Shown here: in pieces, positions 246 to 52,450 of the stretch
How the letters are laid out: each line of letters begins with the position of its first letter
Position numbering within the stretch: position 1 is the stretch's first letter
From: Candidatus Nomurabacteria bacterium GW2011_GWC2_42_20
GTDB lineage: Bacteria > Patescibacteriota > Minisyncoccia > Phycocordibacterales > UBA1550
Assembly: GCA_000998425.1 (NCBI GenBank)
Contig: LCDG01000001.1
Location: 10,558-74,557 of the forward strand
DNA: 64,000 nucleotides
Direction: 5' to 3'
Translations under genes and position numbers: made by a program
The notes under the pieces: generated by a model
What the model was told of the DNA's origin: nothing
What the model saw: the letters and a program-made list of their open reading frames with translations, nothing else
The model's database searches: none

Positions 246-2276
<2,031 letters not shown>

Positions 2277-5298: not shown

Positions 5299-5320
5299 GG
5301 GTGGGGACGAAAGTGACATA

Positions 5321-5358
5321 ACACGAGAACGCCTCTCGCACGAGAGGCGTTCTCGTGT
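5321..5358 (+). terminator. perfect 18-bp-stem palindromic hairpin downstream of the propeller gene (intrinsic terminator-like)
   Basis: acacgagaacgcctctcg-ca-cgagaggcgttctcgtgt; it lies 23 nt after the stop at 5298. Confidence 0.55.
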
Positions 5359-5371
5359 TAGAATATCAGGC

Positions 5372-8026: not shown

Positions 8027-8103
8027 GTCGGCGTAGCTCAGTTGGTTAGAGCATGGCACTCATAAAGCCAAGGTCGGTGGTTCGATCCCACCCGTCGACA
8101 CCA
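8027..8103 (+). tRNA. tRNA with CAU anticodon (elongator Met or lysidine-modified Ile2); CCA encoded
   Basis: Acceptor gtcggcg/cgtcgac, D-arm tagctcagttggttagagc, anticodon loop cTCATaa, T-arm ggtgg-ttcgatc-ccacc, followed by the 3' terminal sequence a-cca. Confidence 0.8.
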
Positions 8104-8136
8104 GAAAAACTCATTGATGAGTTTTTCTGGTGTCGA
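8095..8136 (+). terminator. perfect hairpin overlapping the 3' end of the tRNA (tRNA-processing/terminator structure)
   Basis: tcgacaccagaaaaactcat-tg-atgagtttttctggtgtcga. Confidence 0.45.
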
Positions 8137-15977: not shown

Positions 15978-16048
15978 TGCGAGATCGTCTAATGGTAGGA
16001 CATCGCCCTCTGGAGGCGGTTATCTTGGTTCGAATCCAGGTCTCGCAG
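15978..16048 (+). tRNA. tRNA-Gln (CUG)
   Basis: U1:A72 acceptor tgcgaga/tctcgca with discriminator G, anticodon arm tcgcc-ctCTGga-ggcgg, T-arm cttgg-ttcgaat-ccagg. Confidence 0.8.
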
Positions 16049-16360
16049 CCGATTTTAAGTTTTTTGCGCGACCAGTAGGTCATTATGGTGAATGAGAAGC
16101 GTTCCTTTACAAAAAAGCTAAAAATCGCGTCGCAGTGTCGCGCATAGCGACACAAGACGTGAACTAATTAGCCCGCCATAGCAATGGAGACAATAAAAAA
16201 GTTGAGACAGGCTCAGTGACTAAAAATCCACAGTGAGTTATTTTTTTCTGAGGTCTTCGTCCAAGAGTCTGCGGTCAAGCGACTGCGTCCAGGACGTGAA
16301 CCTGCTGGTTCAAAATCTACTTATTCAAAAGCAAATAATTCGTCTACGTCGCTAATAACC

Positions 16361-16401
16361 GTGAAAAATTGTGTTTTTAGGCAGATTTTCACGGTTATGG
16401 T
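16361..16401 (+). repeat. hairpin repeat copy A (9-bp perfect inverted repeat ccgtgaaaa/ttttcacgg, followed by ttatg)
   Basis: ccgtgaaaaattgtgtttttaggcagattttcacggttatg; a homologous copy lies at 17104-17143. Confidence 0.5.
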
Positions 16402-16478
16402 TGCAAAAGAGTGAAAATTCCCGTAGGACGAATAAAGAATTGCAAGTTGATACTTATGTTATACTACCTCAAATAAAC

Positions 16479-16880
16479 ATGAAAAAAGATTATAAAGAGT
16501 GGCACTCGAAGAAATCAGAAATTAGTGAAATCAAAAAGAGCCCCTTCTTTCACGAGCGCGAAATTTGGTTTTGTTACCTTGGTTCGAATATAGGTTTTGA
16601 GCAAGACGGAGGGGAGGAATTTTTGAGACCTGTTGTTGTTTTTCGTAAGTTCAACAACGAAATCTTTTGGGCGATTCCACTTACAAAGTCAAAAAAGAAG
16701 CTAAACAAAAAGACGGAGTGTTATTATTACTCATTTTCATTCATACCTGAGGTTACGAGCCTCGCGATATTGTCACAAATTCGTTTAGTTGACGCAAAGA
16801 GACTAAGTCGTCACATTGGTACAATGCCCGAAGAAAGCTTTGATGAACTAAAGAAAAAACTCAAAGCATTAATACCTTGA
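16479..16880 (+). CDS. PemK/MazF-family endoribonuclease toxin-like protein with a ~25-aa N-terminal extension; no cognate antitoxin ORF detected
   Basis: The segment ...EIWFCYLGSNIGFEQDGGEEFLRPVVVFRKFNNEIFWAIPLTKSKKK... and the C-terminal ...LSQIRLVDAKRLSRHIGTMPEESFDELKKKL follow the Kid/PemK pattern (GEIW...G.EQ.G.RPvvV...P.T...R..D...R.....VPE...E.L..L). The track ORF from 16371 uses a GTG start; the first ATG is at 16479. Confidence 0.6.
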   Translation: MKKDYKEWHSKKSEISEIKKSPFFHEREIWFCYLGSNIGFEQDGGEEFLRPVVVFRKFNNEIFWAIPLTKSKKKLNKKTECYYYSFSFIPEVTSLAILSQIRLVDAKRLSRHIGTMPEESFDELKKKLKALIP

Positions 16881-17103
16881 GTTTCTCTTTTTCCTCTACC
16901 TTGCGGCAGAGTCGGGCCGAAGCCGTTTGTAAGTAAAATATACACTACTTACGAAAGAATTGCAAATTTTTCAAGCTGAGTTATCCACAGGCAAGGAAAT
17001 GAATGAGTATTTTTAGGCAACAAAAACCGCATTCTAAAATGCTACTTTTGTTAGAGGTGGTGGTCTCACGCAATAACTTATGAAGGCACTTTTGCATAAT
17101 AAC

Positions 17104-17143
17104 TATGAAAATTATGTTTCTAGGCACATTTTCATAGTTATGC
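17104..17143 (+). repeat. hairpin repeat copy B (10-bp perfect inverted repeat, followed by ttatg)
   Basis: ctatgaaaattatgtttctaggcacattttcatagttatg. Partial extra copies (ataacttatgaagg, catgaaaatttctaagca) lie nearby. Confidence 0.5.
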
Positions 17144-17319
17144 TAACGAAAACATGAAAATTTCTAAGCACCCCTTTTTTGAAGTTTTAAATACAAAAGG
17201 TGGTGGAAGAAATTCTTTTGCCAACAGCCTCACTTAATTTTCTTAGATTGATAGTGGACTTTTTGTAATAAAAATTTATTAGGGGTATACTTTGAGTTAC
17301 CAACACGGCTTATAATTTT

Positions 17320-17667
17320 ATGCAAAAAATCGAAGATTTAACCACCAGAATAACGGCTTTCAGGGATGCGAGAGACTGGAAGCAATTCCATAACCCAAAA
17401 GACTGTGCAATTTCGCTTGCGCTTGAAGCGGCAGAAGTACTAGAGCATTTTCAGTGGAAAAACAAGGAGGAAATGGAAGTTTATGCAAAAACAAACAAAG
17501 AAGAAATAAGCGAAGAGTTAGCTGATGTTTTGTATTGGGTTCTTTTGATGAGTAAGGATCTTGACATCGATGTATTAGAGGCTCTACATAAAAAAATGAA
17601 GAAGAATGAAGATAAGTATCCAGTTGAAAAAGCAAAGGGCAAACATACTAAGTATACTGAACTATAA
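17320..17667 (+). CDS. MazG-like nucleoside triphosphate pyrophosphohydrolase (all-alpha NTP-PPase)
   Basis: 115 aa ...DWKQFHNPKDCAISLALEAAEVLEHFQWK...ISEELADVLYWVLLMSKDLDIDVLEALHKKMKKNEDKYP, the MazG/YpjD pattern (E.EL.DVL..L.......I.L). A TATAAT box sits 12 nt upstream of the ATG. Confidence 0.8.
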   Translation: MQKIEDLTTRITAFRDARDWKQFHNPKDCAISLALEAAEVLEHFQWKNKEEMEVYAKTNKEEISEELADVLYWVLLMSKDLDIDVLEALHKKMKKNEDKYPVEKAKGKHTKYTEL

Positions 17668-17670
17668 AAT

Positions 17671-19692
17671 ATGTCAGAAATTAAAACTTTTCAATTTGAT
17701 AAAGATAAATTTGAACAAATAAGAAGTTACAAGTTTGGTAGAAACTGGCCTGTCGTGTATGTTATCGAAGACGGGAAGGAGCTCTATATTGGGGAGACCA
17801 CAAGTGTGTATTCGAGAAGTAAACAACACCATGAAAATCCAGATAGGGCAAAACTTAATAGAATTCATATCATTACAGATGATGAATATAATAAATCTGC
17901 AACATTAGATATTGAATCTCTGCTAATTCAATATATCTCTGCCGAAGGCACATTTAAAATTCAAAACGGTAATGATGGGCTAAGAAATCATAATTATTTT
18001 GATAAGGAAAAATATAGAGCAAAATTTGAATCTACGTGGGAGAAGCTGAAAGAGATGGCGCTTGTGAAGCAGGATTTGGTCCAGATAAAAAATAGCGACT
18101 TATTTAAGTATTCTCCATACAAGGCCCTGACCGAAGACCAACTGATGGTTGTAAAATGTATTTCTAAAAATTTGGAGGCAAACAAGGAAAAGACTTATAT
18201 AATCAATGGCAAGCCAGGGACTGGAAAAACAATCCTCGCTGTTTACCTAATTAAGTATTTGAAAGAAAATAAAAAAACGAAACACCTAAATGTTGCATTA
18301 GTTGTTCCAATGACGTCGCTAAGGAAAACCATTAGAAAAGTATTTTCCAAAGTTGCTGGATTGAAGTCTAGTATGGTTGTCGGACCTAATGAAGTAGTAA
18401 ATAAGAATTACGATATTCTGATAGTTGATGAGGCTCACAGGTTAAAACAGAGAAAGAATATCGCCAACTATAGGTCATTCGACATCACAAATAAAAAACT
18501 CGGTTTTGATAATTCAGGCACGGAACTAGACTGGATAATGAAATCCTCGAAACAACAGATTTTTTTCTATGATAAGAATCAAACAATAAGACCAACGGAC
18601 GTAAGGCCTGATAAATTTAACAAACTTGGTGCTATTCATTACGACTTAGTCAGTCAGCAAAGAATAAGCGCAGGGGAGGAATACATTAATTTTATTGATG
18701 ACCTATTTGATCTTAAGGACCTCAGAAAATATACTTTCCCAGATTATGATTTTCAAATTTATGATGATATTCATAAAATGGTTGAGGATATAAAGAACAA
18801 GGATGCAGAAATGAAACTTTGTAGAATGGTTGCTGGTTACGCTTGGCCGTGGAATTCAAAGAAAAATATAAATAATCACGATATAGAAATTGATGGATTG
18901 AAGATGTTTTGGAATAGTACGAACCAAGATTGGGTAAATTCAAAAAATGCTATAAATGAAGTTGGTTGCATCCATACTGTGCAGGGCTATGATCTAAATT
19001 ACATTGGTGTAATAATTGGGCCTGAAATCTCATATGATGAAGGGAATAGAAAATTGATAGTTAATCCTGATAACTATTTAGATGCAAATGGATGGAAAGG
19101 CATCAATGATCCTGATGAACTCGAAAGATACATTATAAATATTTACAAAACGCTCCTAACCCGAGGCATAAAAGGTGCTTATGTTTATATTGTGGATAAA
19201 AAGCTAGCCAAGTATTTCAGAGATAATATTAAATTAAATAGACAAATAAGTAACACCGCAGCAAAAGAAAAAATTGTTTCTCCATATGCCATAGAAATGA
19301 TCAGCGTGCCACTTCTCGGTATGGCTCCATGTGGCGCTCCGTTTAATGCAGAAGAAAACACTGATGAAATGATCCTTGTTCCAAAAAGTAAAATTCAGCG
19401 TGGCATAGAGTATTTCATTCTGCGTGCTACAGGAGACTCTATGAATAAAGTTGGAATAAATGATGGTGACCTAGTACTCTGTAAGCAAAAATTAACTGCA
19501 CATGAAAATGACAAAGTTGTTGCCTTAATTGGAGACAGAGTGACGATTAAGGAATTTCATCGAGATGGAGCACAGATTGTGCTTAGACCCAGATCTACAA
19601 ATCCGGAGCATCGAGATATTTATCCTGATGAAGATGTTCAAGTTCAAGGTATAGTATTGGAAGTAATAAACAGATTTGAGTATGAAGAATAA
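17671..19692 (+). CDS. tri-domain fusion: GIY-YIG nuclease + DUF2075 (Schlafen-like P-loop NTPase) + C-terminal LexA/UmuD-type S24 self-cleaving peptidase
   Basis: The GIY-YIG motif is WPVVYVIEDGKELYIGETTSVYSRSKQH. The ATPase has Walker A INGKPGTGKT, Walker B ILIVDEAHRL and a later IHTVQGYDLNYIGVIIG segment. The C-terminal ~130 aa read VPLLGMAPCGAPF...ILRATGDSM..GINDGDLVL...KVVALIGDRVTIKEFHRDG..IVLRPRS.NPEH, aligning with LexA/UmuD (Ser in GDSM, Lys in TIKEF, UmuD-like Cys-Gly cleavage site). Confidence 0.7.
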   Translation: MSEIKTFQFDKDKFEQIRSYKFGRNWPVVYVIEDGKELYIGETTSVYSRSKQHHENPDRAKLNRIHIITDDEYNKSATLDIESLLIQYISAEGTFKIQNGNDGLRNHNYFDKEKYRAKFESTWEKLKEMALVKQDLVQIKNSDLFKYSPYKALTEDQLMVVKCISKNLEANKEKTYIINGKPGTGKTILAVYLIKYLKENKKTKHLNVALVVPMTSLRKTIRKVFSKVAGLKSSMVVGPNEVVNKNYDILIVDEAHRLKQRKNIANYRSFDITNKKLGFDNSGTELDWIMKSSKQQIFFYDKNQTIRPTDVRPDKFNKLGAIHYDLVSQQRISAGEEYINFIDDLFDLKDLRKYTFPDYDFQIYDDIHKMVEDIKNKDAEMKLCRMVAGYAWPWNSKKNINNHDIEIDGLKMFWNSTNQDWVNSKNAINEVGCIHTVQGYDLNYIGVIIGPEISYDEGNRKLIVNPDNYLDANGWKGINDPDELERYIINIYKTLLTRGIKGAYVYIVDKKLAKYFRDNIKLNRQISNTAAKEKIVSPYAIEMISVPLLGMAPCGAPFNAEENTDEMILVPKSKIQRGIEYFILRATGDSMNKVGINDGDLVLCKQKLTAHENDKVVALIGDRVTIKEFHRDGAQIVLRPRSTNPEHRDIYPDEDVQVQGIVLEVINRFEYEE

Positions 19693-19717
19693 ATAATATT
19701 GAATCTAAAAAATAATT

Positions 19718-20497
19718 ATGGAAAAACTTTCTTATTCAAAAAAACTTTATTACAAGGCCGGCGTAAAACTCTTGATTTTTCCGATCCTAGCAATGATTTT
19801 AGGAATTAGTTTTTTTGTTTATGGTATTGATAACGCGATCGCACTTGGTGTTCCGTTGGCTGGACTTGTTGGTTTTGGTCTCGGGTTTATCCTCTTCCCA
19901 CTAAGTGAGCGAGTCCAAACAATATTTGATAAAAAAATTGACCACATCTATTCAAAATATGCAGACCCGATTATAGATGATAGAGATGCAGCAAAACGAG
20001 GAATAGACGGAGAAAGCATTGTCTTTGGCTGGCTTAATGAAATTCTTACTGATAAATCGTGGTCAATATATAAAAATGTAGAATTTACAGCAGGCGACAA
20101 AAATAAATTTGACATAGATGCCATAGTGGTCGGCCCGAAAGGAATTTTTGTATTTGAGATAAAGAATTTGTCATATGACTTTTTCTTTACTTCACATGAC
20201 TGTGATGTGGTGGTGGGTGAACAAATTCGACCATGCTCTCAAAAAGACCCGCGAATACAGATTGCTCAAAATGCAGAGATATTAGAAAAGAAACTGAAGG
20301 CAAGTGGCTTTAATGGAGTAAAAACGAAGCGCGCAGTTGTGTTTGCTCGACCAGAATCCATTCGGTTTCTCGGGAGCACTACAGTCTTTTTGATAGATAA
20401 TAAGGAAACTTTAAAGAGGTATATGCTCGAACAGTATGATGACCTGAGGTTTACGCCTGAGTTTTGTGAAAAAGTAAAAGAGGCAATTTTGTCATAA
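19718..20497 (+). CDS. membrane-anchored NERD (nuclease-related domain) protein
   Basis: 259 aa; two N-terminal TM helices, then GIDGESIVFGWLNEIL...KFDIDAIVVGPKGIFVFEIKNLSY...QIAQNAEILEKKLK, matching the NERD pattern (G..GE...L..L...DiD.vvv...GifviEvKn). Confidence 0.65.
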   Translation: MEKLSYSKKLYYKAGVKLLIFPILAMILGISFFVYGIDNAIALGVPLAGLVGFGLGFILFPLSERVQTIFDKKIDHIYSKYADPIIDDRDAAKRGIDGESIVFGWLNEILTDKSWSIYKNVEFTAGDKNKFDIDAIVVGPKGIFVFEIKNLSYDFFFTSHDCDVVVGEQIRPCSQKDPRIQIAQNAEILEKKLKASGFNGVKTKRAVVFARPESIRFLGSTTVFLIDNKETLKRYMLEQYDDLRFTPEFCEKVKEAILS

Positions 20498-21266: not shown

Positions 21267-21358
21267 CTATTAGTCGGTTTTGCAATTAAAAACACAAGCA
21301 CCAATCCGGCAATACCAGTTTGGTGCTTGTGTTTTTGTGGTACCATATTAATAATACG

Positions 21359-22207
21359 ATGAAAAAGATTATGCGCGTTATTTTGGTTGTCGCAGTTGTG
21401 GGGGTAGTTTTCCTTATGCTTTCCTACACAAGCAGTCACAATATGGGCGTGTTCAACCCGAAGGGAACAATTGCCCATGCGGAAATGAACCTTATTGTCA
21501 CGACAACGCTACTCATGCTTATTGTGGTTATCCCTGTATTCGTTATGCTCGCAATTTTTTCATGGAGATACAGGGCTGGTAATACGAAGGCAAAGTATTC
21601 TCCAGACTGGCATAAAAGTATCGCGTTGGAAGTGATTTGGTGGATAATACCAATAATAATTATTGCTATTATTGCAAGGATGACGTGGATTAGTAGTCAT
21701 GATCTTGATCCATATAAACCGATTGCTTCAAGTGTTGTTCCAATTACAATAGAGGTTGTTGCTCTTGAGTGGAAATGGCTGTTCATTTATCCGGATCAAA
21801 ACATCGCTACTTTGAATTTTGTACAATTGCCAATTGATACACCTATTAATTTTAGGATAACTGGCGACGCACCGATGAATTCATTTTGGATTCCCCAGCT
21901 TGCGGGACAAATATATGCAATGGAGAAAGGGGACTATGCAGGTGTTTCCGCAAACTACAGTGGATTTGGGTTTTCGGGAATGAAGTTTACAGCGAGGGCG
22001 AGCTCGCAAGACGAGTTTGAACAGTGGGTGCGAACAGTTCGTATGTCACCAAGCACACTTAGTATTGATGAATACACCAAGCTTGCAGAAAAAAGTAGGA
22101 ATAATGATGTCTCGTACTACTCATCTGTTCACAAAGGTTTGTATGATAAAATAATAATGAAATTCATGGTGCCAGCGAATGTAATAATGACGAAAATGAA
22201 TATGTAA
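21359..22207 (+). CDS. cyoA: cytochrome o/bo3-type ubiquinol oxidase subunit II (no CuA site)
   Basis: Two N-terminal TM helices plus a cupredoxin-like domain ...[25 protein letters not shown]... lacking the CuA Cys/His ligands, resembling quinol-oxidase subunit II. ATG at 21359; the track uses TTG at 21320. Confidence 0.8.
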
Positions 22208-22211
22208 TATT

Positions 22212-24164
22212 ATGTTTGGAAACCTCACACTCTCTGCGCTCCCACATGAACCAATCACCGTTGGAGCTGGTATTTTTATGGCTATCGCTGGCTCAAGCAT
22301 TATAGGACTTTTGTTTTATTTCAAGCGCTGGAGGTGGCTTTGGGCAGAATGGCTCACATCAGTAGATCATAAAAAGATCGGTGTGATGTACATCATTTTG
22401 GCTTTCGTGATGCTTCTCCGCGGCTTTTCTGATGCCGTAATGATGCGATTACAGCAAATATTGTCAGTCGGTGATTCTGTGGGGTATTTGCCACCAGAGC
22501 ATTACGACCAAATATTTACGGCACACGGAGTGATCATGATCTTTTTTGTTGCGATGCCGCTCATGTTTGGGTTAATCAACCTGGCGGTGCCACTTCAGAT
22601 CGGAGCGAGAGATGTTGCTTTTCCTTTTCTCAACTCGATGAGCCTTTGGCTCACTGTTTTTGGCGCGATGTTGGTAAACTTGTCGCTTGTAGTGGGGGAG
22701 TTTGCGGCGACTGGGTGGCTCGCATACCCGCCACTTTCGGGCATTGTGTATAGTCCTGGTGTAGGGGTGGACTATTATATTTGGGCGCTACAGATTGCAG
22801 GTGTCGGAAGCTTGATCTCTGGAATAAATTTCTTTGTAACTATACTTATGATGCGTTGCAAGGGGATGACACTCATGAGGATGCCAGTTTTTGTGTGGAC
22901 CGTCCTTGCTTCTATGACGCTCGTTATTATTTCTTTTCCAATTCTTACAGCCACGCTCGGAATGCTCTCATTGGATAGGCTTCTCGGAATGCATTTTTTT
23001 ACGTCGGACTTTGGCGGGAATGCAATGATGTATGTGAACCTTATTTGGGCGTGGGGGCATCCTGAGGTATATATTCTCGTATTACCAGCATTCGGTATTT
23101 TTTCTGAAGTTGTTTCAGTATTTTCACGCAAGAAACTTTTTGGATATACATCGATGATCTACGCGACAGTTGCTATTACGTTTTTGTCATTTGTGGTTTG
23201 GGTACACCACTTCTTTACGATGGGCGCTGGCGCAAATGTAAATGCTTTCTTTGGCATCATGACAATGATCATTGCCATACCAACTGGTGTGAAGGTTTTT
23301 AATTGGCTATTCACAATGTTTCGCGGACGCATCGTGTTTGCATCGCCAATGCTCTGGATGATTGGGTTTATTTTTACATTCACAATAGGTGGGATGACAG
23401 GAGTTTTGCTTTCCGTGCCAGCTGCTGATTTTCAGCTACACAACAGTTTATTTTTAGTCGCGCATTTTCACAATACGATTATCGGTGGTGTAGTATTCGG
23501 ATACTTTGCTGGGATCACATATTGGTTTTCAAAGATTTTTGGCTTCAAATTGAATGAACGACTCGGCAAGGCTGCCTTTTGGCACTGGATTGTAGGCTTT
23601 TTTGTAGCGTTTGTACCTCTTTATATTCTTGGTCTAATGGGAATGACGAGACGCATAAGCCATATAGATGAATCTACTGGATGGCAGACACTTTTGATCG
23701 TTGCTGGTATCGGTGTAGTAATTATCGGCATCGGTGTCCTGCTACAAATTTTGCAAATGATTGTAAGTATCCGCGACCGCAAGCACAACATGGATACGAC
23801 CGGAGATCCATGGGACGGTAGGACTTTGGAGTGGTCTACATCTTCACCTCCGCCTTTCTATAACTTTGCTATTATCCCAACAGTGCACGGTCGCCACCCT
23901 TTTTGGGATACGAAGTATGGCGAATCCGAACAGGTTGCTCCACACTATGAGGATATTGAAATGCCGAGTAATACGCCGATGGGTTTGTACATTGCATTTG
24001 CGAGCGTGGTATTTGGCTTTGCAATCGTGTGGCATATCGTATGGTTAGTGGTGTTAGCGTTTGCAGCTATTTTGGCGCTTCTTATTGCGCGTTCACTTGA
24101 TTACAATACTGAGTATGTTGTGAAGGCAGAGACGATCGCAAAAATTGAAGCTAAAAGAAAATAA
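22212..24164 (+). CDS. cyoB: heme-copper quinol oxidase subunit I
   Basis: 650 aa, ~14 TM helices; conserved [22 protein letters not shown] and HFHNTIIGG motifs (heme and CuB His ligands). Confidence 0.95.
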
Positions 24165-24165
24165 T

Positions 24166-24780
24166 ATGAAAGAAGAAACACTAAATCATAACAGTTTCCG
24201 ACCAGGGCGTGAGTCTGCTGACGGAGAAGCGAAGGCAATCTTCGGTTTCTGGGTATATATTATGAGTGACACACTTTTGTTTGCTGCTATCTTTGCTACA
24301 CATGCAGTGCTTCACAATAATACCTTCGATGGTCCGTCGGCAAAGGAGCTTGTTAATATGACATTTGTTTTGACTGAGACACTCGTTCTTCTCGCAAGTA
24401 GTTTTGCGTTTGGTATTGCTTCTACATATGCGCATCATCATAATAAGAAAAATATTGTACTTGTATGGATCAGTGTCACATTTCTTCTAGGCGCAGCATT
24501 TATTGGGATGGAGATGACGGAGTTTGCAAAGCTTTTTCAAGAAGGGAATAGTTGGCAGAGGAGCGGATTTTTATCAGGTTTCTTTACCCTTATTGGTACG
24601 CACGGGCTGCATGTGACTGCAGGTCTCATTTGGATGGTGAGTGTATTTGCTCAGGTATTGAAGTATGGGCTCACAGACAGAACAATAGGGAGAATATCAA
24701 CACTAGGACTATTTTGGCATTTCCTCTACATCGTGTGGATATTTATATTCACCCTTGTTTATCTTATGGGGGTAATATAA
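24166..24780 (+). CDS. cyoC: quinol oxidase subunit III
   Basis: ~200-aa 5-TM protein at the subunit-III position in the operon; ...LGLFWHFLYIVWIFIF... fits the subunit III C-terminus. Confidence 0.85.
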   Translation: MKEETLNHNSFRPGRESADGEAKAIFGFWVYIMSDTLLFAAIFATHAVLHNNTFDGPSAKELVNMTFVLTETLVLLASSFAFGIASTYAHHHNKKNIVLVWISVTFLLGAAFIGMEMTEFAKLFQEGNSWQRSGFLSGFFTLIGTHGLHVTAGLIWMVSVFAQVLKYGLTDRTIGRISTLGLFWHFLYIVWIFIFTLVYLMGVI

Positions 24781-24787
24781 AAATACT

Positions 24788-25171
24788 ATGACAAACAATT
24801 TTGAAGTCATTGATGAACGATATGAAGCAAGTCACCATGCATTTAAATCATATGCCATTGGGTTTGTGTTGTCTCTTTTGTTCACAATTGTTCCGTATTT
24901 TCTAGTTATCAAACGCCTGTTTGGTGACCAGAGCCTAATATTGGCGGTGGTTTTTTTCGCCGTCGCACAGTTTTTTGTACAGGTAGTATTCTTCCTTCAT
25001 CTTCATAAAAAATCGCGACCGCGTTGGAATATGATTGTTTTCATTTTTACGATTTTGATTGTCGCAATTTTGGTCGTAGGGTCTCTGTGGGTCATGCGTA
25101 ACCTAGATTACAACATGACGAAAGTGTTCGATCTGAACACAAATGAAGGGTATATGCTAGAAAAAAAATGA
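24788..25171 (+). CDS. cyoD: quinol oxidase subunit IV
   Basis: 127-aa 3-TM protein at the subunit-IV position. Confidence 0.7.
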   Translation: MTNNFEVIDERYEASHHAFKSYAIGFVLSLLFTIVPYFLVIKRLFGDQSLILAVVFFAVAQFFVQVVFFLHLHKKSRPRWNMIVFIFTILIVAILVVGSLWVMRNLDYNMTKVFDLNTNEGYMLEKK

Positions 25172-26031
25172 TCAAAGATTATTATTTCATAACAAAACCA
25201 GGAATTATAGGAGGCAACGCAATTACTGCTATTGCTGGTTTTTTACTTGCATCTAGAGGGGATATCAATTGGCTCATTCTCTTCGCGACACTTGCTGGGC
25301 TTTCTCTTGTTGTTGCATCAGGATGCGTTTTTAACAATTACATCGACCGCGACATTGATGCAATCATGGAGCGTACAAAAAACCGCACAATGGCACAAGG
25401 GCGGTCATCTCTTAGAAGCGCACTCGTGTATGCGTCGGTGCTTGGACTAACCGGTCTTGGTATTTTATATTTTTATACAAATTTTTTAGCGATGGCAGCC
25501 GCACTTATAGGGCTCTTTGTTTATGTAGTTGGATATAGTTTGTGGCTCAAGCGCACTTCTACCATTAGCGCCATTATTGGAAGTGTCTCTGGAGCTATGC
25601 CTCCAGTTGTGGGGTATCTTGCGGTGACTGGAAACATTGACCTAGGTGCTGTCATTATATTTTTTATTCTCGCGTTTTGGCAGATGCCCCATTCGTATGC
25701 AATTGCCATATATCGGCTCAGGGATTATACAAATGCGAGTATCCCCGTTTTACCAGCAGAAAAAGGAATTTATATGACAAAGGTGCATATGCTTATTTAT
25801 GTTGCCCTTTTTGTAATGGCAAGTTTGGCGCTGTCTGTATTTGGTTATGCAGGGCAGCTTTATTTTTGTGCAATGATATTGTTTGGATTCGCGTGGTTCC
25901 TCCTGTGTGTTAAGGGTTTCTTCATTAAAACAACTAATAATAAAAAATGGGCGCACAGCATGTATATTTTTTCAATCATTATTATTGCAATGTTTTTCCT
26001 AGTTGTTTTGGTTGAGGCGCTACAGATATAG
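25168..26031 (+). CDS. cyoE: protoheme IX farnesyltransferase (heme O synthase)
   Basis: 287 aa, UbiA-family; ...YIDRDIDAIMERTKNRTMAQG... (D-rich prenyl-diphosphate-binding motif). It overlaps cyoD by 4 nt. Confidence 0.9.
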   Translation: MIKDYYFITKPGIIGGNAITAIAGFLLASRGDINWLILFATLAGLSLVVASGCVFNNYIDRDIDAIMERTKNRTMAQGRSSLRSALVYASVLGLTGLGILYFYTNFLAMAAALIGLFVYVVGYSLWLKRTSTISAIIGSVSGAMPPVVGYLAVTGNIDLGAVIIFFILAFWQMPHSYAIAIYRLRDYTNASIPVLPAEKGIYMTKVHMLIYVALFVMASLALSVFGYAGQLYFCAMILFGFAWFLLCVKGFFIKTTNNKKWAHSMYIFSIIIIAMFFLVVLVEALQI

Positions 26032-47850: not shown

Positions 47851-47852
47851 AA

Positions 47853-47900
47853 ATAAAAACCAAAAACGCCCAGCAAATGCTGGGCGTTTTTGGTTTTTAT
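47853..47900. terminator. 22-bp-stem perfect palindrome, bidirectional terminator between the DEAD-box gene (+) and the antiporter (-)
   Basis: ataaaaaccaaaaacgcccagc-aaat-gctgggcgtttttggtttttat. Confidence 0.8.
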
Positions 47901-49114
47901 TGTCTTGGGGAATATACTGAGCCCTCTTGGTATTCCTCGAGCGGTTTTTTAGAGGTGAGAAGTCCGAGAATCATCAGGAGACTAGATGCAATAATAACAA
48001 AATATACGATGCCTTCGCTAAAAGCATCGAGTCTAAGCTGAATCGGGATACTGTAGAAAAGAATAATAGTTACAAGACCTCGCGGAGCAATAAAAAGTTC
48101 TGAAATAACATTTGTCTTGAGGATAAATCGTAGAAAGACATAACGTATGATGAGGATTGATACAACAATAAGCGAGCCTATTGTTGCTACGCCTTCATCC
48201 ACGATAAGCGCGAGATTTAGTGTGTAACCAAAAATAAGAAAAAAGAACGTTCGGACAAGGAATGCAGTTTCTGCGGTAATGAGTTTTAGGTCAGCAGAAA
48301 ATAGGCCGGCTTTCTGCCATGCTACCTGCCCAAAAGGAATACTCCTTAGGAGTTGCGTGTTGTTTATGATAAGACCAAAAACCATAATGAGAATAAGCGA
48401 TGGCAGGTGGAGGAGTTTCCCCACAGAGAAGAGAATGATTAGTAAGGAGAAAACTAAGAAGAACTTAACCTGTGCGTTTATGGACTGAATAAAGTATGTC
48501 AATATCAATGAAACGACGATAGAAACAATGATGCTCAATATAATGTCTGAAAAGAATCCGCCTACTGCAGCCCAGTCGACAACCGCTGTAGCAACAATAA
48601 AGTTAAAAAGGAGAATACCAAGGATGTCAGAAAAAGTAGATTCGTAAATAATAAATTCTTTTTTTTCTTCGGTAAAATCTATTACGCTTGGAATAGCGAT
48701 AGCACTACTGATGATCCCAAGTGGGATAGCGTAGACGATTGCGTTGCGAATAGGGATGTCGAGGAGTAGTATAAATATGAGAGAGATGACTCCAGCGGTC
48801 GTGAAAAAGATAACGATAGCAGAAATAAATGACTGACCAATGAGAGAGGCCTTGTCTTTGGTTATCTTGAGGTCAAGCACCCCCTCGAGAACGATTAAGA
48901 TAAGTCCTACTATGCCAAAAAACTGCAGCAGAGTCGTTGCTTGAATAAACGAATAGCCGACAGAGTCCCCAAAGTACCTCAGTCCAACTCCTGTACCAAG
49001 GAGGAGTAGAACAGAAGGAAACTTCAGTTTATTAGAGATGATATTGAATACATACGAAACAACCACCAGAAGTGCCAACACAATCAAGATTGAATATGGG
49101 TCGATTTCTAGCAT
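47897..49114 (-). CDS. cation:proton antiporter (CPA1/CPA2-like Na+/H+ exchanger)
   Basis: 405 aa, ~12 TM helices, typical antiporter hydrophobic organisation. Confidence 0.75.
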   Translation of the reverse strand: MLEIDPYSILIVLALLVVVSYVFNIISNKLKFPSVLLLLGTGVGLRYFGDSVGYSFIQATTLLQFFGIVGLILIVLEGVLDLKITKDKASLIGQSFISAIVIFFTTAGVISLIFILLLDIPIRNAIVYAIPLGIISSAIAIPSVIDFTEEKKEFIIYESTFSDILGILLFNFIVATAVVDWAAVGGFFSDIILSIIVSIVVSLILTYFIQSINAQVKFFLVFSLLIILFSVGKLLHLPSLILIMVFGLIINNTQLLRSIPFGQVAWQKAGLFSADLKLITAETAFLVRTFFFLIFGYTLNLALIVDEGVATIGSLIVVSILIIRYVFLRFILKTNVISELFIAPRGLVTIILFYSIPIQLRLDAFSEGIVYFVIIASSLLMILGLLTSKKPLEEYQEGSVYSPRQ

Positions 49115-51361: not shown

Positions 51362-52378
51362 ATGAATTGTATGAGAGCGCTCTTGTTAATCATTTTTATA
51401 TTTTTTTCGTTTCCTGTATATGCAGCTTCGCAGCCACTAAAAAATGTTGGGTTTGTTCCTGCAAATATTTGGTTTTCAAAAGACCCATTTTTTGACGGAG
51501 AAAAAATCAGAATATACACGATTGTCTTCAATGGTAGTTCCTATGCCCTGGAAGGCACGGTTGAATTTTTGGACAATGGTGTGTTTATTGGAAAAACAAA
51601 TTTTTCTTTGTCATCTGGTGGTCGTGTGCGTGATATGTGGATCGATTGGGAGGCAACAAAGGGGAAGCATGCAATAACTGCGCGTATAGTTGGGGCAACA
51701 GCATCATCGTCTGGTGGTGCAAAAAGCTCAGTCATGCTCGATAATACAGAGACAGGGAAGAGTGTGCGCGATGTCGATATGGACAGCGATGGTGACGATA
51801 TCGGGGATAGAGACGATCTGGATGACGATGGTGACGGAATATCTGACGTTGATGAACTCAGAAATGGAACAGACCCTCTTAAAAAAGATACTGACGGTGA
51901 CGGAATATCTGATGATAAGGAGCTTGAGATTTTGCTAAAAGATAAGGCAGAAGCAGAGTTGATTTTAGATAGTGCGTCAACGTCAGTTGGCACTATTTTA
52001 CATACATTAAGGAAAATAGATGAAACTATTCCTGAACCAATAAAAACAGCTGCAATAACCAGTACAAATATTGTGGAGCGTTTTCGAGTCGAAGAAGGGT
52101 ACAAATTCGCTCTTGCAAAGGATAAAAAACTTCAAGAAATAAAGTTAACCAGCGAGAATAAGCAAAAAATACTTGCGCAGGAGAATAGCAAGAATAATGA
52201 AAATGATGTTATTGGCAACGTGTCAAATGCTACAAAAAAACCATTTGCATATGCAATGCTCGCGAGTCTTGCCGTACTTGAGTATACTTTTAAATGGAAG
52301 GTTGTATTTTATGGAATCCTACTTTATACAGCGTATCGTATGATTATGTGGCTTGTGCGTCGTGTGCGTGACAGGTAG
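51362..52378 (+). CDS. secreted protein with thrombospondin type-3-like Ca-binding Asp-rich repeats and a C-terminal TM anchor
   Basis: Signal peptide; ...DVDMDSDGDDIGDRDDLDDDGDGISDVDELRNGTDPLKKDTDGDGISDDKE... (DxDxDG repeats); C-terminal hydrophobic helices. Confidence 0.6.
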   Translation: MNCMRALLLIIFIFFSFPVYAASQPLKNVGFVPANIWFSKDPFFDGEKIRIYTIVFNGSSYALEGTVEFLDNGVFIGKTNFSLSSGGRVRDMWIDWEATKGKHAITARIVGATASSSGGAKSSVMLDNTETGKSVRDVDMDSDGDDIGDRDDLDDDGDGISDVDELRNGTDPLKKDTDGDGISDDKELEILLKDKAEAELILDSASTSVGTILHTLRKIDETIPEPIKTAAITSTNIVERFRVEEGYKFALAKDKKLQEIKLTSENKQKILAQENSKNNENDVIGNVSNATKKPFAYAMLASLAVLEYTFKWKVVFYGILLYTAYRMIMWLVRRVRDR

Positions 52379-52443
52379 AGAAGCAGAAAATAAAAAGGTT
52401 CGCCAACGAGCTCGTTGGCGAACCTTTTTATTTTCTGCTTCTC
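52378..52443. terminator. 66-bp perfect palindrome (33-bp arms), bidirectional terminator between convergent genes
   Basis: gagaagcagaaaataaaaaggttcgccaacgag|ctcgttggcgaacctttttattttctgcttctc; I verified the arm sequences are exact reverse complements. Confidence 0.8.
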
Positions 52444-52450
52444 TTGTAAA

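Follow-up and report, generated by a model that had tools for sequence, protein, structure and literature searches.

Among type II toxins, MazF is the textbook case, and a MazF gene without a partner (an 'orphan') is commonly written off as either decayed or cross-regulated. In the type II modules MazEF and PemIK (Kid-Kis), the toxin gene is second in an autoregulated operon with a MazE- or PemI-type protein. In type III systems (ToxIN, CptIN, and TenpIN), an endoribonuclease toxin of the Kid/MazF-like class is paired with a non-coding RNA encoded next to it, and a protein antitoxin is lacking. Their RNA, with a ToxI-type pseudoknot, lies upstream of the toxin gene in the same orientation with a terminator between the two, and to our knowledge all known type III antitoxins are tandem repeats placed upstream on the toxin's strand. 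In the type I systems of B. subtilis (txpA/RatA, bsrG/SR4, and bsrE/SR5), the genes are convergent with overlapping 3′ ends, a strong promoter is dedicated to the RNA, the terminator region is shared and bidirectional, and the toxins are hydrophobic peptides of <60 aa. Precedents for a nuclease-type toxin under small-RNA control are SymE/SymR and RalR/RalA. Furthermore, the pemK RNA motif (Rfam; Firmicutes 5′ UTRs) is a conserved RNA structure beside pemK-family genes, presumed to be cis-regulatory, upstream and on the gene's strand.

Here, we analyzed a 64,000-nt stretch of a Candidatus Nomurabacteria contig (hereafter the window), in which a MazF/PemK-like gene is bracketed by two hairpin repeats and faces a convergent small RNA gene. 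The toxin gene and the RNA gene comprise the following features:

16457-16465, plus strand: extended -10 element TGtTATACT, 13 nt upstream of the toxin ATG, read from the sequence
16479-16880, plus strand: MazF/PemK-family endoribonuclease-like ORF, 133 aa, PF02452
about 16930 to 16848, minus strand: predicted small RNA of ~83 nt, candidate RNA antitoxin, from covariance model, fold, and alignment
16915-16924, minus strand: P1, GGC-UUCG-GCC, a UUCG hairpin
16894-16911, minus strand: P2, CUCUGCC-GCAA-GGUAGAG, a GNRA hairpin with heavy covariation
16854-16887, no strand assigned: P3, the terminator hairpin, which spans the final 8 codons with the stop and runs 7 nt further
16937-16965, minus strand: small-RNA promoter, -35 TTGCAA (16965-16960), N17, -10 TATATT (16942-16937)
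16981-16989, no strand assigned: perfect match to the DnaA-box consensus, TTATCCACA, immediately ahead of the small-RNA promoter

With the type III systems, the locus shares the class of toxin, the adjacent non-coding RNA, and the lack of a protein antitoxin, as well as a structured RNA unit that can be tandem (five units in locus L211 and two in L068) and a strong RNA promoter, so that the antitoxin should be in excess. On the other hand, the toxin is PF02452 by sequence and not ToxN/AbiQ, CptN, or TenpN, the RNA is downstream and convergent, a single unit is present in the window and nearly all loci, and the RNA forms two hairpins, capped by UUCG and GNRA loops, instead of a pseudoknot. With the type I modules of B. 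subtilis, it has in common the convergent genes with overlapping 3′ ends, the RNA's own strong promoter, and the shared bidirectional terminator region, whereas its protein is 133 aa long and, as modeled, soluble with an RNase fold, and the conserved part of its RNA lies outside an overlap that is ~31 nt long and nearly absent in paralogues. The likeness to type II is one of fold and motifs (PF02452, GxEQxG, RP, and QIRxID); the differences are that in 70 modules no MazE/PemI-type or other conserved protein gene adjoins the toxin gene, that a basic segment of 27 residues is added at the N-terminus, and that the toxin gene is alone on its predicted near-leaderless mRNA. SymE/SymR and RalR/RalA differ in that SymR overlaps the symE 5′ end and RalA acts in trans with Hfq, that their toxins are an AbrB-fold protein and a DNase, and that they have no conserved RNA domain outside the complementarity. 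The small RNA gave no match to the pemK RNA motif.

The toxin ORF matched PF02452 (PemK_toxin) over residues 28-131 at 42 bits (cut-off 23.1; E = 1.2e-10). This was its sole Pfam match and bears out the MazF/PemK assignment made in a preliminary description of the region. Its AF2 model (pLDDT 74, with 70-90 in the core) has a predicted SH3-like barrel of the MazF/Kid/CcdB fold, and the top 48 Foldseek matches in the PDB were MazF-type toxins (probability 1.0, TM ~0.6-0.7), including those of S. aureus, M. tuberculosis, B. subtilis, and E. coli as well as YdcE and MoxT; CcdB first appeared at rank 49. R50-P51, G39-E41..G44, S99-Q100-I-R-L-x-D105, and T69 were invariant or nearly so in 28 homologues. 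A PDB profile alignment set these motifs against GSEQGG, VRP, and EQIRTID of B. subtilis EndoA, with the catalytic Thr one or two positions off, and the EndoA motifs GxEQxG, RP, and QIRxID are conserved in the toxin. The 27-residue basic N-terminal extension is also conserved and is absent from solved MazF proteins. No match was obtained in PADLOC or NCBIfam. As the extended -10 element lies 13 nt before the ATG, the toxin mRNA is predicted to be near-leaderless; homologues have TGnTATAGT-type or TATACT-type elements 9-13 nt ahead of the ATG. The putative toxin gene has no conserved promoter of its own.

The small RNA is convergent with the toxin ORF and overlaps its 3′ end by ~31 nt (the last 8 codons and the stop). 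It is laid out as 5′-ACAAACGG, P1, P2, an A-rich linker, and the P3 terminator. On the minus strand P3 is followed by UUUUUUCUUU and constitutes the small-RNA terminator, listed on that strand by a terminator scan; the same hairpin is probably the terminator of the toxin mRNA as well. With a covariance model of the RNA, the only strong match in the window was at 16842-16931 on the minus strand (96.6 bits). The minus-strand fold reached -32.9 kcal/mol (z = -4.4), compared with -17.7 kcal/mol (z = -0.9) for the plus strand. In alignment A3, 97% of the cells were paired and double changes were found in 14 of the 21 pairs, a result equaled by none of 500 shuffles, and slid-alignment controls gave 25-59% pairing. 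P3 had double changes in 8 of its 11 pairs across 53 sequences. G·U pairs numbered 63 on the minus strand versus 5 on the plus strand (41 versus 3 in P3). P1 was identical in 52 of the 53 sequences, with one G·U variant, and in a distant member it covaries as GAC-UUCG-GUC. Conservation is highest in P1-P2, a part of the RNA that the overlap with the toxin gene does not reach, and the divergent paralogue forms L038, L067, and L210 have kept this 5′ domain and lost nearly all of the ORF overlap. The tandem P1+P2 units mentioned above, which in L211 lie behind one promoter, occur in only 2 of ~75 loci, both of them convergent. Scans against 4,227 Rfam families, with gathering cut-offs over the window and permissively (E ≤ 10) over this region and divergent loci, gave no match to the small RNA or the hairpin repeats, and none of the 87 matches to the small-RNA 5′ motif in viral contigs was true to the covariance model. 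A small ORF within the RNA was rejected: 42 of 53 sequences have its ATG (MASARL...) but the window has ACG, the ORF length varies from 7 to 29 aa, and substitutions follow base-pairing.

The predicted start of the RNA is the A at 16930, and a generic promoter/terminator scan independently found both its promoter and its terminator. The family promoter, TTGACA-N16/17-TGnTATAcT, is conserved while the spacer varies. Among 71 unique loci with the promoter at the same position, the -35 consensus was matched in 70 (T), 71 (T), 69 (G), 59 (A), 56 (C), and 39 (A); the spacer was 16 nt in 37 loci and 17 nt in 27, and a TG preceded the -10 in 50 of the 71. Further, a DnaA-like 9-mer (≤1 mismatch) occurred in the 50 nt upstream of the -35 in 25 of 69 modules, versus 1.4 expected (P ~4e-25), and the strict form TTWTNCACA near the promoter in 13 of 69. 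By this enrichment, the DnaA-box-like site is a conserved feature of the cassette. A replication origin was considered and rejected, given a single perfect box in the region, boxes that are not clustered, and a flat GC skew across the window.

The association of this RNA with the toxin extends far beyond the window. In ~70 unique loci it lies downstream of the toxin stop codon, the toxins there sharing 48-87% identity with that of the window, and the toxin family is 65-87% identical across several Parcubacteria lineages. In homologues with an 85% identical protein and an ATP synthase operon context, the sequence after the stop is near-invariant. Loci with toxin-downstream sequence matched the covariance model on the opposite strand with 34-106 bits, L100 reaching only 15.7. 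The toxin profile was matched by 1,515 clusters (50% identity) at E ≤ 1e-10, and the RNA was present in all four distant toxin representatives. Among 393 ORFs of ≥35 aa in 70 distinct modules, no ORF family was common to more than three loci, and the initial remark that no protein antitoxin ORF is present holds both in the window and across these modules. At the level of sequence, the small RNA, its promoter, its structure, its invariable linkage to the toxin, the missing protein partner, and the excess of flanking repeats described below can be regarded as established, and the RNA that accompanies this toxin family across hundreds of CPR bacteria is likely an RNA antitoxin.

The flanks of the cassette contain the hairpin repeats and the neighboring genes:

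15978-16050, plus strand: tRNA-Gln (CTG), ARAGORN; Rfam tRNA, 58 bits
16353-16419, plus strand: flanking direct repeat copy 1, ending 59 nt before the toxin ATG
17097-17162, plus strand: flanking direct repeat copy 2, starting 111 nt past the small-RNA -35
16411-16417 (copy 1) and 17154-17160 (copy 2): third RTGAAAA 7-mer, read from the sequence
17263-17291, plus strand: promoter of the MazG-like gene, TTGTAA-N17-TATACT, promoter scan
17320-17667, plus strand: MazG-like nucleotide pyrophosphohydrolase, PF12643, 68 bits

Two homologous hairpins bracketing the toxin gene had been reported at the outset, and both were found in place; the unit, however, is 68 nt rather than 40 nt long, its perfect stems have 13 and 14 bp rather than 9-10 bp, and what had been taken for a 'ttatg tail' is mostly part of the outer stem (GTTAT). 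The two copies are 79% identical with two 1-nt indels, lie in direct orientation, and are 744 nt apart and thus not tandem. Copy 1 contains a perfect 13-bp palindrome (arms 16355-16367 and 16386-16398, 18-nt loop) and copy 2 a perfect 14-bp palindrome (arms 17099-17112 and 17128-17141, 15-nt loop). Between the copies, CG has changed to TA on both arms so that pairing is kept, and this compensatory change suggests that the palindrome has some function. Folded as RNA, both copies were well below shuffles (z = -4.2 each). Each copy carries three RTGAAAA 7-mers in alternating orientation at a spacing of 17-18 nt, and the full hairpin pattern occurred 0.00 times in shuffled sequence. The similarity between the copies runs 20 nt past the hairpin, beyond GTTATG, and catgaaaatttctaagca, initially listed as a further partial copy, is simply the 3′ part of the repeat unit, its equivalent in copy 1 being AGTGAAAATTCC. 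Searched with a covariance model of the unit, the window and ~345 kb of related CPR loci yielded these two copies alone (99 and 93 bits), and the repeat was not found beside any of ~70 homologous toxin genes. Scans of larger collections were null or at chance level: an exact-pattern scan of 185,579 genomes gave 15 single matches in unrelated phyla, which is roughly what chance would give, and viral contigs gave 0. Because the repeat is unique to this locus, its reading as a MITE or as one of a family of operators is weakened. The eight strain differences at the locus all lie upstream of the tRNA, with none in the hairpins or the small RNA.

GC content is 0.358 over 16-20 kb versus ~0.42 elsewhere, a segment that holds the cassette and the MazG-like, helicase, and NERD genes, with tRNA-Gln at its left. 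The MazG-like gene is the first of a MazG-like/GIY-YIG-helicase-S24/NERD block that recurs in other contexts, and is a neighbor outside the cassette. Relatives whose MazG is 91-96% identical share the promoter block of this gene and otherwise differ upstream. Both hairpin copies lie upstream of this promoter, and copy 2 is therefore outside the MazG 5′ UTR. Short motifs are also repeated in the spacers, namely AGGTGGTGG at 17055 and 17198 (6 in the window versus 0.25 expected) and GACGTGAAC at 16156 and 16293 (3 in the window versus 0.29 expected), and the perfect hairpin GTGTCGC-GCATA-GCGACAC noted earlier was found again at 16136-16154.

The cassette, ~530-560 nt long, was found in many unrelated contexts, sometimes with two or three copies within a few kb. 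Flanking direct repeats scoring ≥30 bits were present in 7 of 61 modules, that of the window included, against 0 of 183 mismatched controls, which makes it probable that the hairpin repeats are duplicated target DNA. In five of those seven modules the repeats abut the cassette ends. Where they could be read, they were host promoter (L059 and L070) or gene 5′ sequence (L037), unrelated from locus to locus. As the repeats of the window are direct and unique to the locus, and those of other loci consist of host sequence, they are better explained as duplicated target than as termini of the element itself. The repeats of the window are, however, 59 and 111 nt from the cassette ends, versus ≤37 nt in the clearest cases, and with just 7 of 61 modules having flanking repeats, most insertions are presumably old or of different origin. 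In a search for an empty site, all MazG-like proteins 100% identical to that of the window adjoined the cassette, while in relatives with 91-96% identical MazG-like proteins the upstream DNA was unrelated, homology ending ~75 nt before the MazG ATG. As this search yielded no empty site, duplication on insertion is proposed for the window's repeats by analogy with the other loci.

The small RNA could act solely as a cis-antisense transcript in a type I-like manner, pairing with the 3′ end of the toxin mRNA through complementary terminator hairpins and causing degradation or a translation block with no contact to the protein. The genes are convergent, their ~31-nt overlap at the toxin 3′ end is conserved in the main family and is just as compatible with antisense action alone, the layout is that of txpA/RatA and bsrG/SR4 in B. 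subtilis, and the complementary loops of the terminator hairpins would recall kissing-loop antisense systems. Nevertheless, we consider this rather unlikely, because complementarity needs no sequence conservation and yet the non-overlapping 5′ domain is the most conserved, is kept in L038, L067, and L210 with almost no ORF overlap, and is amplified five-fold in L211; moreover, a 133-aa RNase would be out of keeping with type I toxins, which are small hydrophobic peptides. The conservation of P1-P2 outside the overlap, the retention of the 5′ domain in overlap-poor paralogues, and the amplified units argue for type III-like action, against which it counts that the RNA of the window is single-unit, convergent, and downstream of the toxin gene. 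It is also conceivable, though improbable, that the RNA is no antitoxin at all and that the MazF-like protein is its non-toxic processing or binding partner in a small RNP, or that the RNA regulates other targets in trans. The protein is unusually conserved for a toxin across the Parcubacteria lineages (65-87% identity), its basic N-terminal extension is unlike solved MazF proteins, and the invariant single-stranded ACAAAUGG and P1 could recognize a conserved trans target. Against this, the pair behaves as a selfish mobile cassette, in many contexts and in multiple copies, as is typical of toxin-antitoxin (TA) modules, and the MazF catalytic and RNA-binding motifs appear to be retained.

For the hairpins, a promoter or terminator role was rejected, since they have no U-tract on either strand and the promoter/terminator scan found no promoter inside them, unlike the many tight-loop bidirectional terminators of the window. 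They might instead be palindromic operators for a DNA-binding protein encoded elsewhere that regulates the toxin gene and the MazG-like operon. Perfect palindromes maintained through 21% unit divergence by the change on both arms, the three alternating 7-mers of both copies, and a promoter downstream of each copy would all fit, but quasi-palindrome templated mutation can give concerted arm changes without selection. We regard operators as unlikely, as no further copy turned up in the 64-kb window, the ~345 kb of related loci, or the exact-pattern genome and viral scans, the hairpin is absent ahead of the 91-96% identical MazG-like genes and of all other toxin homologues, the 15-18 nt between the arms is unusual, and no cognate regulator was found. 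Integron attC sites were rejected: the arms end in ..ATAAC and GTTAT.. and fit the RYYYAAC ... GTTRRRY cores only partially, the similarity passes GTTATG by 20 nt, there are two copies only, and no integrase was found among the called genes within ±10 kb. A MITE or IS-derived element was likewise rejected, the units being direct and not inverted, with no dispersed copies in the window and the ~345 kb of related loci. For the hairpins, the MITE-like option is the nearest of those offered in the preliminary description, in that the repeats do bracket a small mobile unit; however, they are direct, unique to the locus, and have no shared termini elsewhere. Still, left- and right-end hairpins bracket the cargo of IS200/IS605 elements, and here too two homologous, directly oriented hairpins bracket an evidently mobile cassette, which could be moved as toxin-RNA cargo by a single-strand transposase acting in trans on subterminal structures of an IS200/IS605-type or PATE/MITE-like element. 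This is highly improbable: the ~70 other cassettes have neither these nor any shared terminal hairpins and are flanked by unrelated host sequence, the copies remain similar for 20 nt beyond the hairpin, the repeat does not occur in many copies, and no transposase or recombinase gene was found by Pfam among the called genes within ±10 kb. Least tenable of all is the leading idea of the preliminary description, that the hairpin repeats themselves are a type III-like RNA antitoxin. Their stable folds do flank a toxin gene devoid of a protein antitoxin, but they are not conserved with the toxin at other loci whereas another RNA is, they have no associated promoter or terminator, and they lie 744 nt apart without being tandem; the comparative data contradict this idea. 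An RNA antitoxin had been the right kind of answer attached to the wrong element, as the hairpins are absent at homologues and the covarying opposite-strand RNA at 16848-16930, missing from that description, is present at every homologue examined.

Taken together, the locus is probably a mobile cassette of a MazF-family toxin and a convergent RNA antitoxin, with the hairpin repeats as a flanking duplication of local sequence. From these sequence comparisons, we infer transcription of the RNA, toxicity of the protein, and antitoxin function, together with a mode of inhibition and a mechanism of insertion. The small RNA would be the missing antitoxin, and its 5′ P1-P2 domain would most likely bind the toxin as an inhibitor or pseudo-substrate in a type III-like manner, while antisense control of type I-like character may come in addition from the ~31 nt in which the RNA's 3′ end overlaps the toxin mRNA. 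A strong RNA promoter would keep the antitoxin in excess, and the DnaA-box-like site beside it may tie the antitoxin level to the cell cycle. The cassette evidently moves within CPR/Parcubacteria genomes, and its landing would leave 20-70 nt of local sequence duplicated in direct orientation at its flanks. Often this would be sequence from the host gene that lies downstream, either its promoter or its 5′ end, and the duplicate would then drive the toxin gene. The two hairpin repeats of the window would be such a duplication, now 21% diverged, and the palindrome a local element kept perfect either through selection, as a hairpin or a site bound by protein, or through templated correction within the strand.

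More tentatively, this may be the founding example of a new TA architecture, in which a bona fide MazF/PemK toxin is neutralized by a toxin-binding, convergent double-hairpin RNA and not by MazE. Such a type III-like arrangement within the archetypal type II family would be carried by a promoter-capturing mobile cassette of ~550 nt in Parcubacteria/CPR, possibly with antitoxin transcription tied to DnaA. A search of full-text literature with limited coverage of subscription journals found no RNA antitoxin of MazF/PemK and no TA small RNA of CPR bacteria, which is weak evidence of novelty.

If the pairing of toxin and RNA is real, a large MazF subfamily (~1,500 clusters at 50% identity, mostly in the tiny genomes of CPR bacteria) always travels with a structured RNA and not with a protein antitoxin, and the boundaries between types I, II, and III would be blurred. 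It would provide a compact, testable RNA inhibitor of a MazF nuclease and add to a short list of conserved regulatory RNAs from the Candidate Phyla Radiation. Landing of the cassette ahead of essential genes (atpG and atpD) with duplication of their promoter would be an unusual form of gene mobility, whose mechanism is worth explaining. For genome annotation, the RNA model would make hundreds of 'orphan toxins' interpretable.

The toxin gene at the centre of the locus encodes a 133-aa protein matching PemK/MazF (PF02452) with 42 bits, which confirms the identity assigned to it in the preliminary description. It is paired with a predicted small-RNA gene on the opposite strand, and the two convergent genes are treated here as one cassette. 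The features of the locus are as follows.

15978-16050: tRNA-Gln, left context of the toxin gene
16479-16880: toxin ORF
16930 to 16848, minus strand: predicted small-RNA gene, about 83 nt
16965-16960 (-35) and 16942-16937 (-10), minus strand: small-RNA promoter TTGCAA-N17-TATATT, from a generic scan
Minus strand, shared downstream region: conserved small-RNA stretch ACAAACGG
Minus strand, shared downstream region: C(UUCG)G hairpin (P1) and GNRA-loop hairpin (P2)
Minus strand, overlapping the end of the toxin ORF: terminator (P3), a hairpin followed by a U-run, from the generic scan
17320-17667: MazG-like gene, next after the toxin ORF

In the AlphaFold model of the toxin (pLDDT 74), approximately 27 residues at the N-terminus form a disordered extension. 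The top 48 Foldseek matches in the PDB were MazF-type toxins, and CcdB appeared first at rank 49. The toxin-family profile aligned to Bacillus subtilis EndoA/YdcE with the GxEQxG loop, the RP motif, and the QIRxID strand conserved; residues R50, P51, T69, and Q100 were invariant or nearly so among homologues. Given the modelled MazF fold and the conserved EndoA motifs, the protein probably acts as a MazF-type RNase.

More than 1,000 close homologues of the toxin were found in Parcubacteria lineages. The nearest (84-87% identity) sit between atpG and atpD, inside the ATP synthase operon, and the hairpin repeats that bracket the window gene are absent there. Approximately 110 nt directly after the toxin stop codon are common to the window and these homologues and are better conserved than the coding sequence. 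The generic scan detected both a promoter and a terminator on the minus strand of this region. The earlier suggestion of an RNA partner for the toxin is partly right, though for this element and not for the hairpin repeats. Among 80 metagenomic loci fetched by toxin protein homology alone, about 70 unique ones carried the RNA element in the same position and orientation; their toxins share 48-75% identity with that of the window. The promoter of the family is near the consensus TTGACA-N16/17-TGnTATAcT, with a freely varying spacer sequence.

In an alignment of 53 RNA sequences, 97% of cells were paired and changes on both sides were seen in 14 of 21 pairs; none of 500 shuffles matched this pairing, and sliding the partners gave only 25-59%. 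The functional RNA is assigned to the strand opposite the toxin gene, since G.U pairs numbered 63 on the minus strand versus 5 on the plus strand. For the window RNA the folding energy is -32.9 kcal/mol (z = -4.4), compared with -17.7 kcal/mol (z = -0.9) for the other strand. A covariance model of the RNA matched the window once (16842-16931, minus strand, 96.6 bits) and scored homologue loci with downstream sequence at 34-106 bits on the strand opposite the toxin, with a single locus (L100) at only 15.7 bits. No Rfam family matched. A coding gene was considered and rejected: an ATG is missing from 11 of the 53 sequences, that of the window among them, and where present it opens ORFs that lack conservation, so the RNA is taken to be non-coding.

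Two further observations concern the small-RNA promoter. The sequence ACGAATAAAGAATTGCAAGTT (16427-16448, about 20 nt), which lies upstream of the toxin gene, resembles the small-RNA -35 region (ACGAAAGAATTGCAAATT, 16950-16968); it could be left over from an earlier cassette next to this one, or the similarity could be due to chance. In addition, a DnaA-box-like 9-mer lies a few nucleotides upstream of the -35 element, in either orientation, in 25 of 69 modules (1.4 expected). The window has the perfect consensus TTATCCACA at 16981-16989, and similar 9-mers occupy the equivalent position in L022, L028, L033, L035, L044, L064, L079, L093, and other homologue loci. A replication origin was rejected as the explanation; the box may couple antitoxin transcription to DnaA.

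The toxin-family profile retrieved 1,515 clusters at 50% identity (E <= 1e-10), and in all four distant representatives looked up the toxin is accompanied by a convergent RNA whose 5' domain is the same. P1 covaries in one homologue locus (L209, GAC-UUCG-GUC). The RNA is shorter in another (L210) and at a paralogous toxin adjoining the main one (L038 and L067), where P2 also serves as the terminator and the overlap with the ORF is almost nil. Tandem units were found in two loci, all others having one. In the distant homologue L211 (GCA_024653945.1), one TTGACA-N17-TATACT promoter precedes five P1+P2 double-hairpin units that have diverged from one another (1575-1850, minus strand), with ACA in the linkers; L068 has two units. 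The L211 array resembles ToxI in its tandem units but differs in being convergent to the toxin gene. No protein-coding neighbour was conserved among 393 flanking ORFs of 70 modules, the largest family spanning three loci.

Some contigs carry two cassettes within 0.5-1.5 kb (L038, 970-1410; L067, 3370-3852; L071, 2885-2977). Among such pairs is a second, more divergent family of MazF-like paralogues, whose RNA keeps the 5' ACAAAUGGCUUCGGCC but is terminated by a single GC-rich hairpin. In three Parcubacteria loci (L022, 2562-2725; L028, 3222-3375; L030, 3385-3540), atpG is followed immediately by a separate conserved element, GC-rich and multi-stem, approximately 150 nt long. Variable small ORFs and the cassette lie downstream of it. 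The element shows compensatory changes in 12 of 44 predicted pairs, and an Rfam scan of the L028 copy gave no match.

The MazF-type toxin has no MazE and only the small RNA as a conserved partner, and the RNA promoter is much stronger than that of the toxin gene; for these reasons the RNA is read as the probable antitoxin. The convergent overlap of about 31 nt suggests that it could act by antisense pairing with the toxin mRNA, which is possible. Direct, type III-like inhibition of the protein appears more likely, perhaps combined with antisense control, because the invariant part of the RNA lies outside the overlap, the paralogues lose the overlap and keep the 5' domain, and the P1-P2 unit can multiply into tandem copies, a property it has in common with ToxI. 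The 5' end of the RNA carries a conserved UACAAAU. The site of B. subtilis MazF is UACAU, and the resemblance hints, speculatively, at a pseudo-substrate of the toxin.

The two hairpin repeats reported to flank the toxin gene are real. They were described as ~40-nt elements, which is too small: the units are 68-nt direct repeats (16353-16419 and 17097-17162) with 79% identity. Each contains a perfect palindrome with a stem of 13 or 14 bp and a loop of 15-18 nt, and a third RTGAAAA 7-mer 18 nt downstream. Since the arms differ between copies by CG to TA on both sides, both palindromes stay perfect, and both units fold far more stably than shuffles (z = -4.2). A search with a covariance model of the two copies found no third copy in the 64-kb window or in approximately 345 kb of related CPR loci, and exact-pattern scans of genome and viral collections yielded either no hits or about as many as chance would give. 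Within the searched sequence, this locus alone carries the repeat unit.

The minor motifs noted previously (AGGTGGTGG boxes, GACGTGAAC, and the hairpin at 16136-16154) are also present. There are six AGGTGGTGG boxes in the window (0.25 expected). Those at 17055-17063 and 17198-17206 flank the second hairpin copy, about 35 nt to each side, and the latter can pair with GCACCCCTTTT (17168-17178) in a predicted stem-loop within 17159-17214. The hairpin-loop motif GTATTTTTAGGCA occurs three times in the window (0.44 expected); its third copy (17007-17019), between the RNA promoter and the second hairpin copy, has no palindrome arms. Other palindromes in the window are very long and perfect (52377-52444, 47852-47901, 5319-5360, and 8095-8136), with arms of 20-34 bp, loops of 0-2 nt, and A/T-run flanks; they look like bidirectional terminators, unlike the wide-loop hairpin repeats.

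The cassette was found in many unrelated genomic contexts. Direct repeats of at least 30 bits bracket 7 of the 61 distinct modules with enough flanking sequence, compared with none of 183 mismatched upstream/downstream control pairs. The window is among the seven, its repeats being the hairpin units. Five of the seven have repeats that abut the cassette, at most 19 nt from the ATG and 37 nt from the RNA -35. Sharp repeats, 22-59 nt of host sequence, occur in five homologue loci:

L037, 2920-2978 and 3530-3588: codons 8-27 of atpG
L070, 2961-2990 and 3502-3531: promoter of the downstream gene
L059, 1731-1759 and 2302-2330: promoter of the downstream gene
L085, 2946-2997 and 3486-3537: flanking direct repeat
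L056, 2971-2992 and 3497-3518: flanking direct repeat

In L070 and L059, the duplicated host promoter is predicted to also drive the near-leaderless toxin gene. Such repeats suggest an insertion process that duplicates its target and captures a promoter; an empty site proving duplication on insertion was looked for and not found. The window repeats lie 59 and 111 nt from the cassette ends, farther than in the clearest cases. By analogy with these loci, the hairpin units are most simply explained as a duplication of local sequence that arose, or was selected, on arrival of the cassette and has since diverged by 21%. Palindromes kept perfect through compensatory change point to either a function, as a binding site or hairpin, or templated quasi-palindrome correction.

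GC content is 0.358 in the 16-20 kb segment, below its surroundings. The MazG-like gene is followed by a gene for a GIY-YIG/Schlafen-type helicase/S24-peptidase protein, which matches the PADLOC Nhi and AbiO models, and then by a NERD protein gene. The first two genes recur together in three other loci (L118, L213, and L214) with differing upstream contexts. The third gene encodes NERD in the window and L213 and an Mrr-like protein in L118; in L214 it is an uncharacterised ORF of 158 aa. A Zeta-toxin gene lies further downstream in L213. This block (17320-20497 in the window) is probably a mobile defence island adjoining tRNA-Gln. Beyond it, precomputed Pfam hits mark a haem-copper oxidase operon at 21320-26031 (COX_ARM, COX1, COX3, COX4_pro, and a UbiA-type haem O synthase). 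Such operons are uncommon in CPR/Parcubacteria genomes.

The full texts searched, with incomplete coverage, contained no description of a MazF toxin with such an RNA partner. We infer the transcription, toxicity, neutralisation, and insertion mechanism of the cassette from comparative sequence evidence. The locus is best described as a variant of RNA-antitoxin systems in which the toxin would be of the MazF family and a small mobile cassette would carry the pair.
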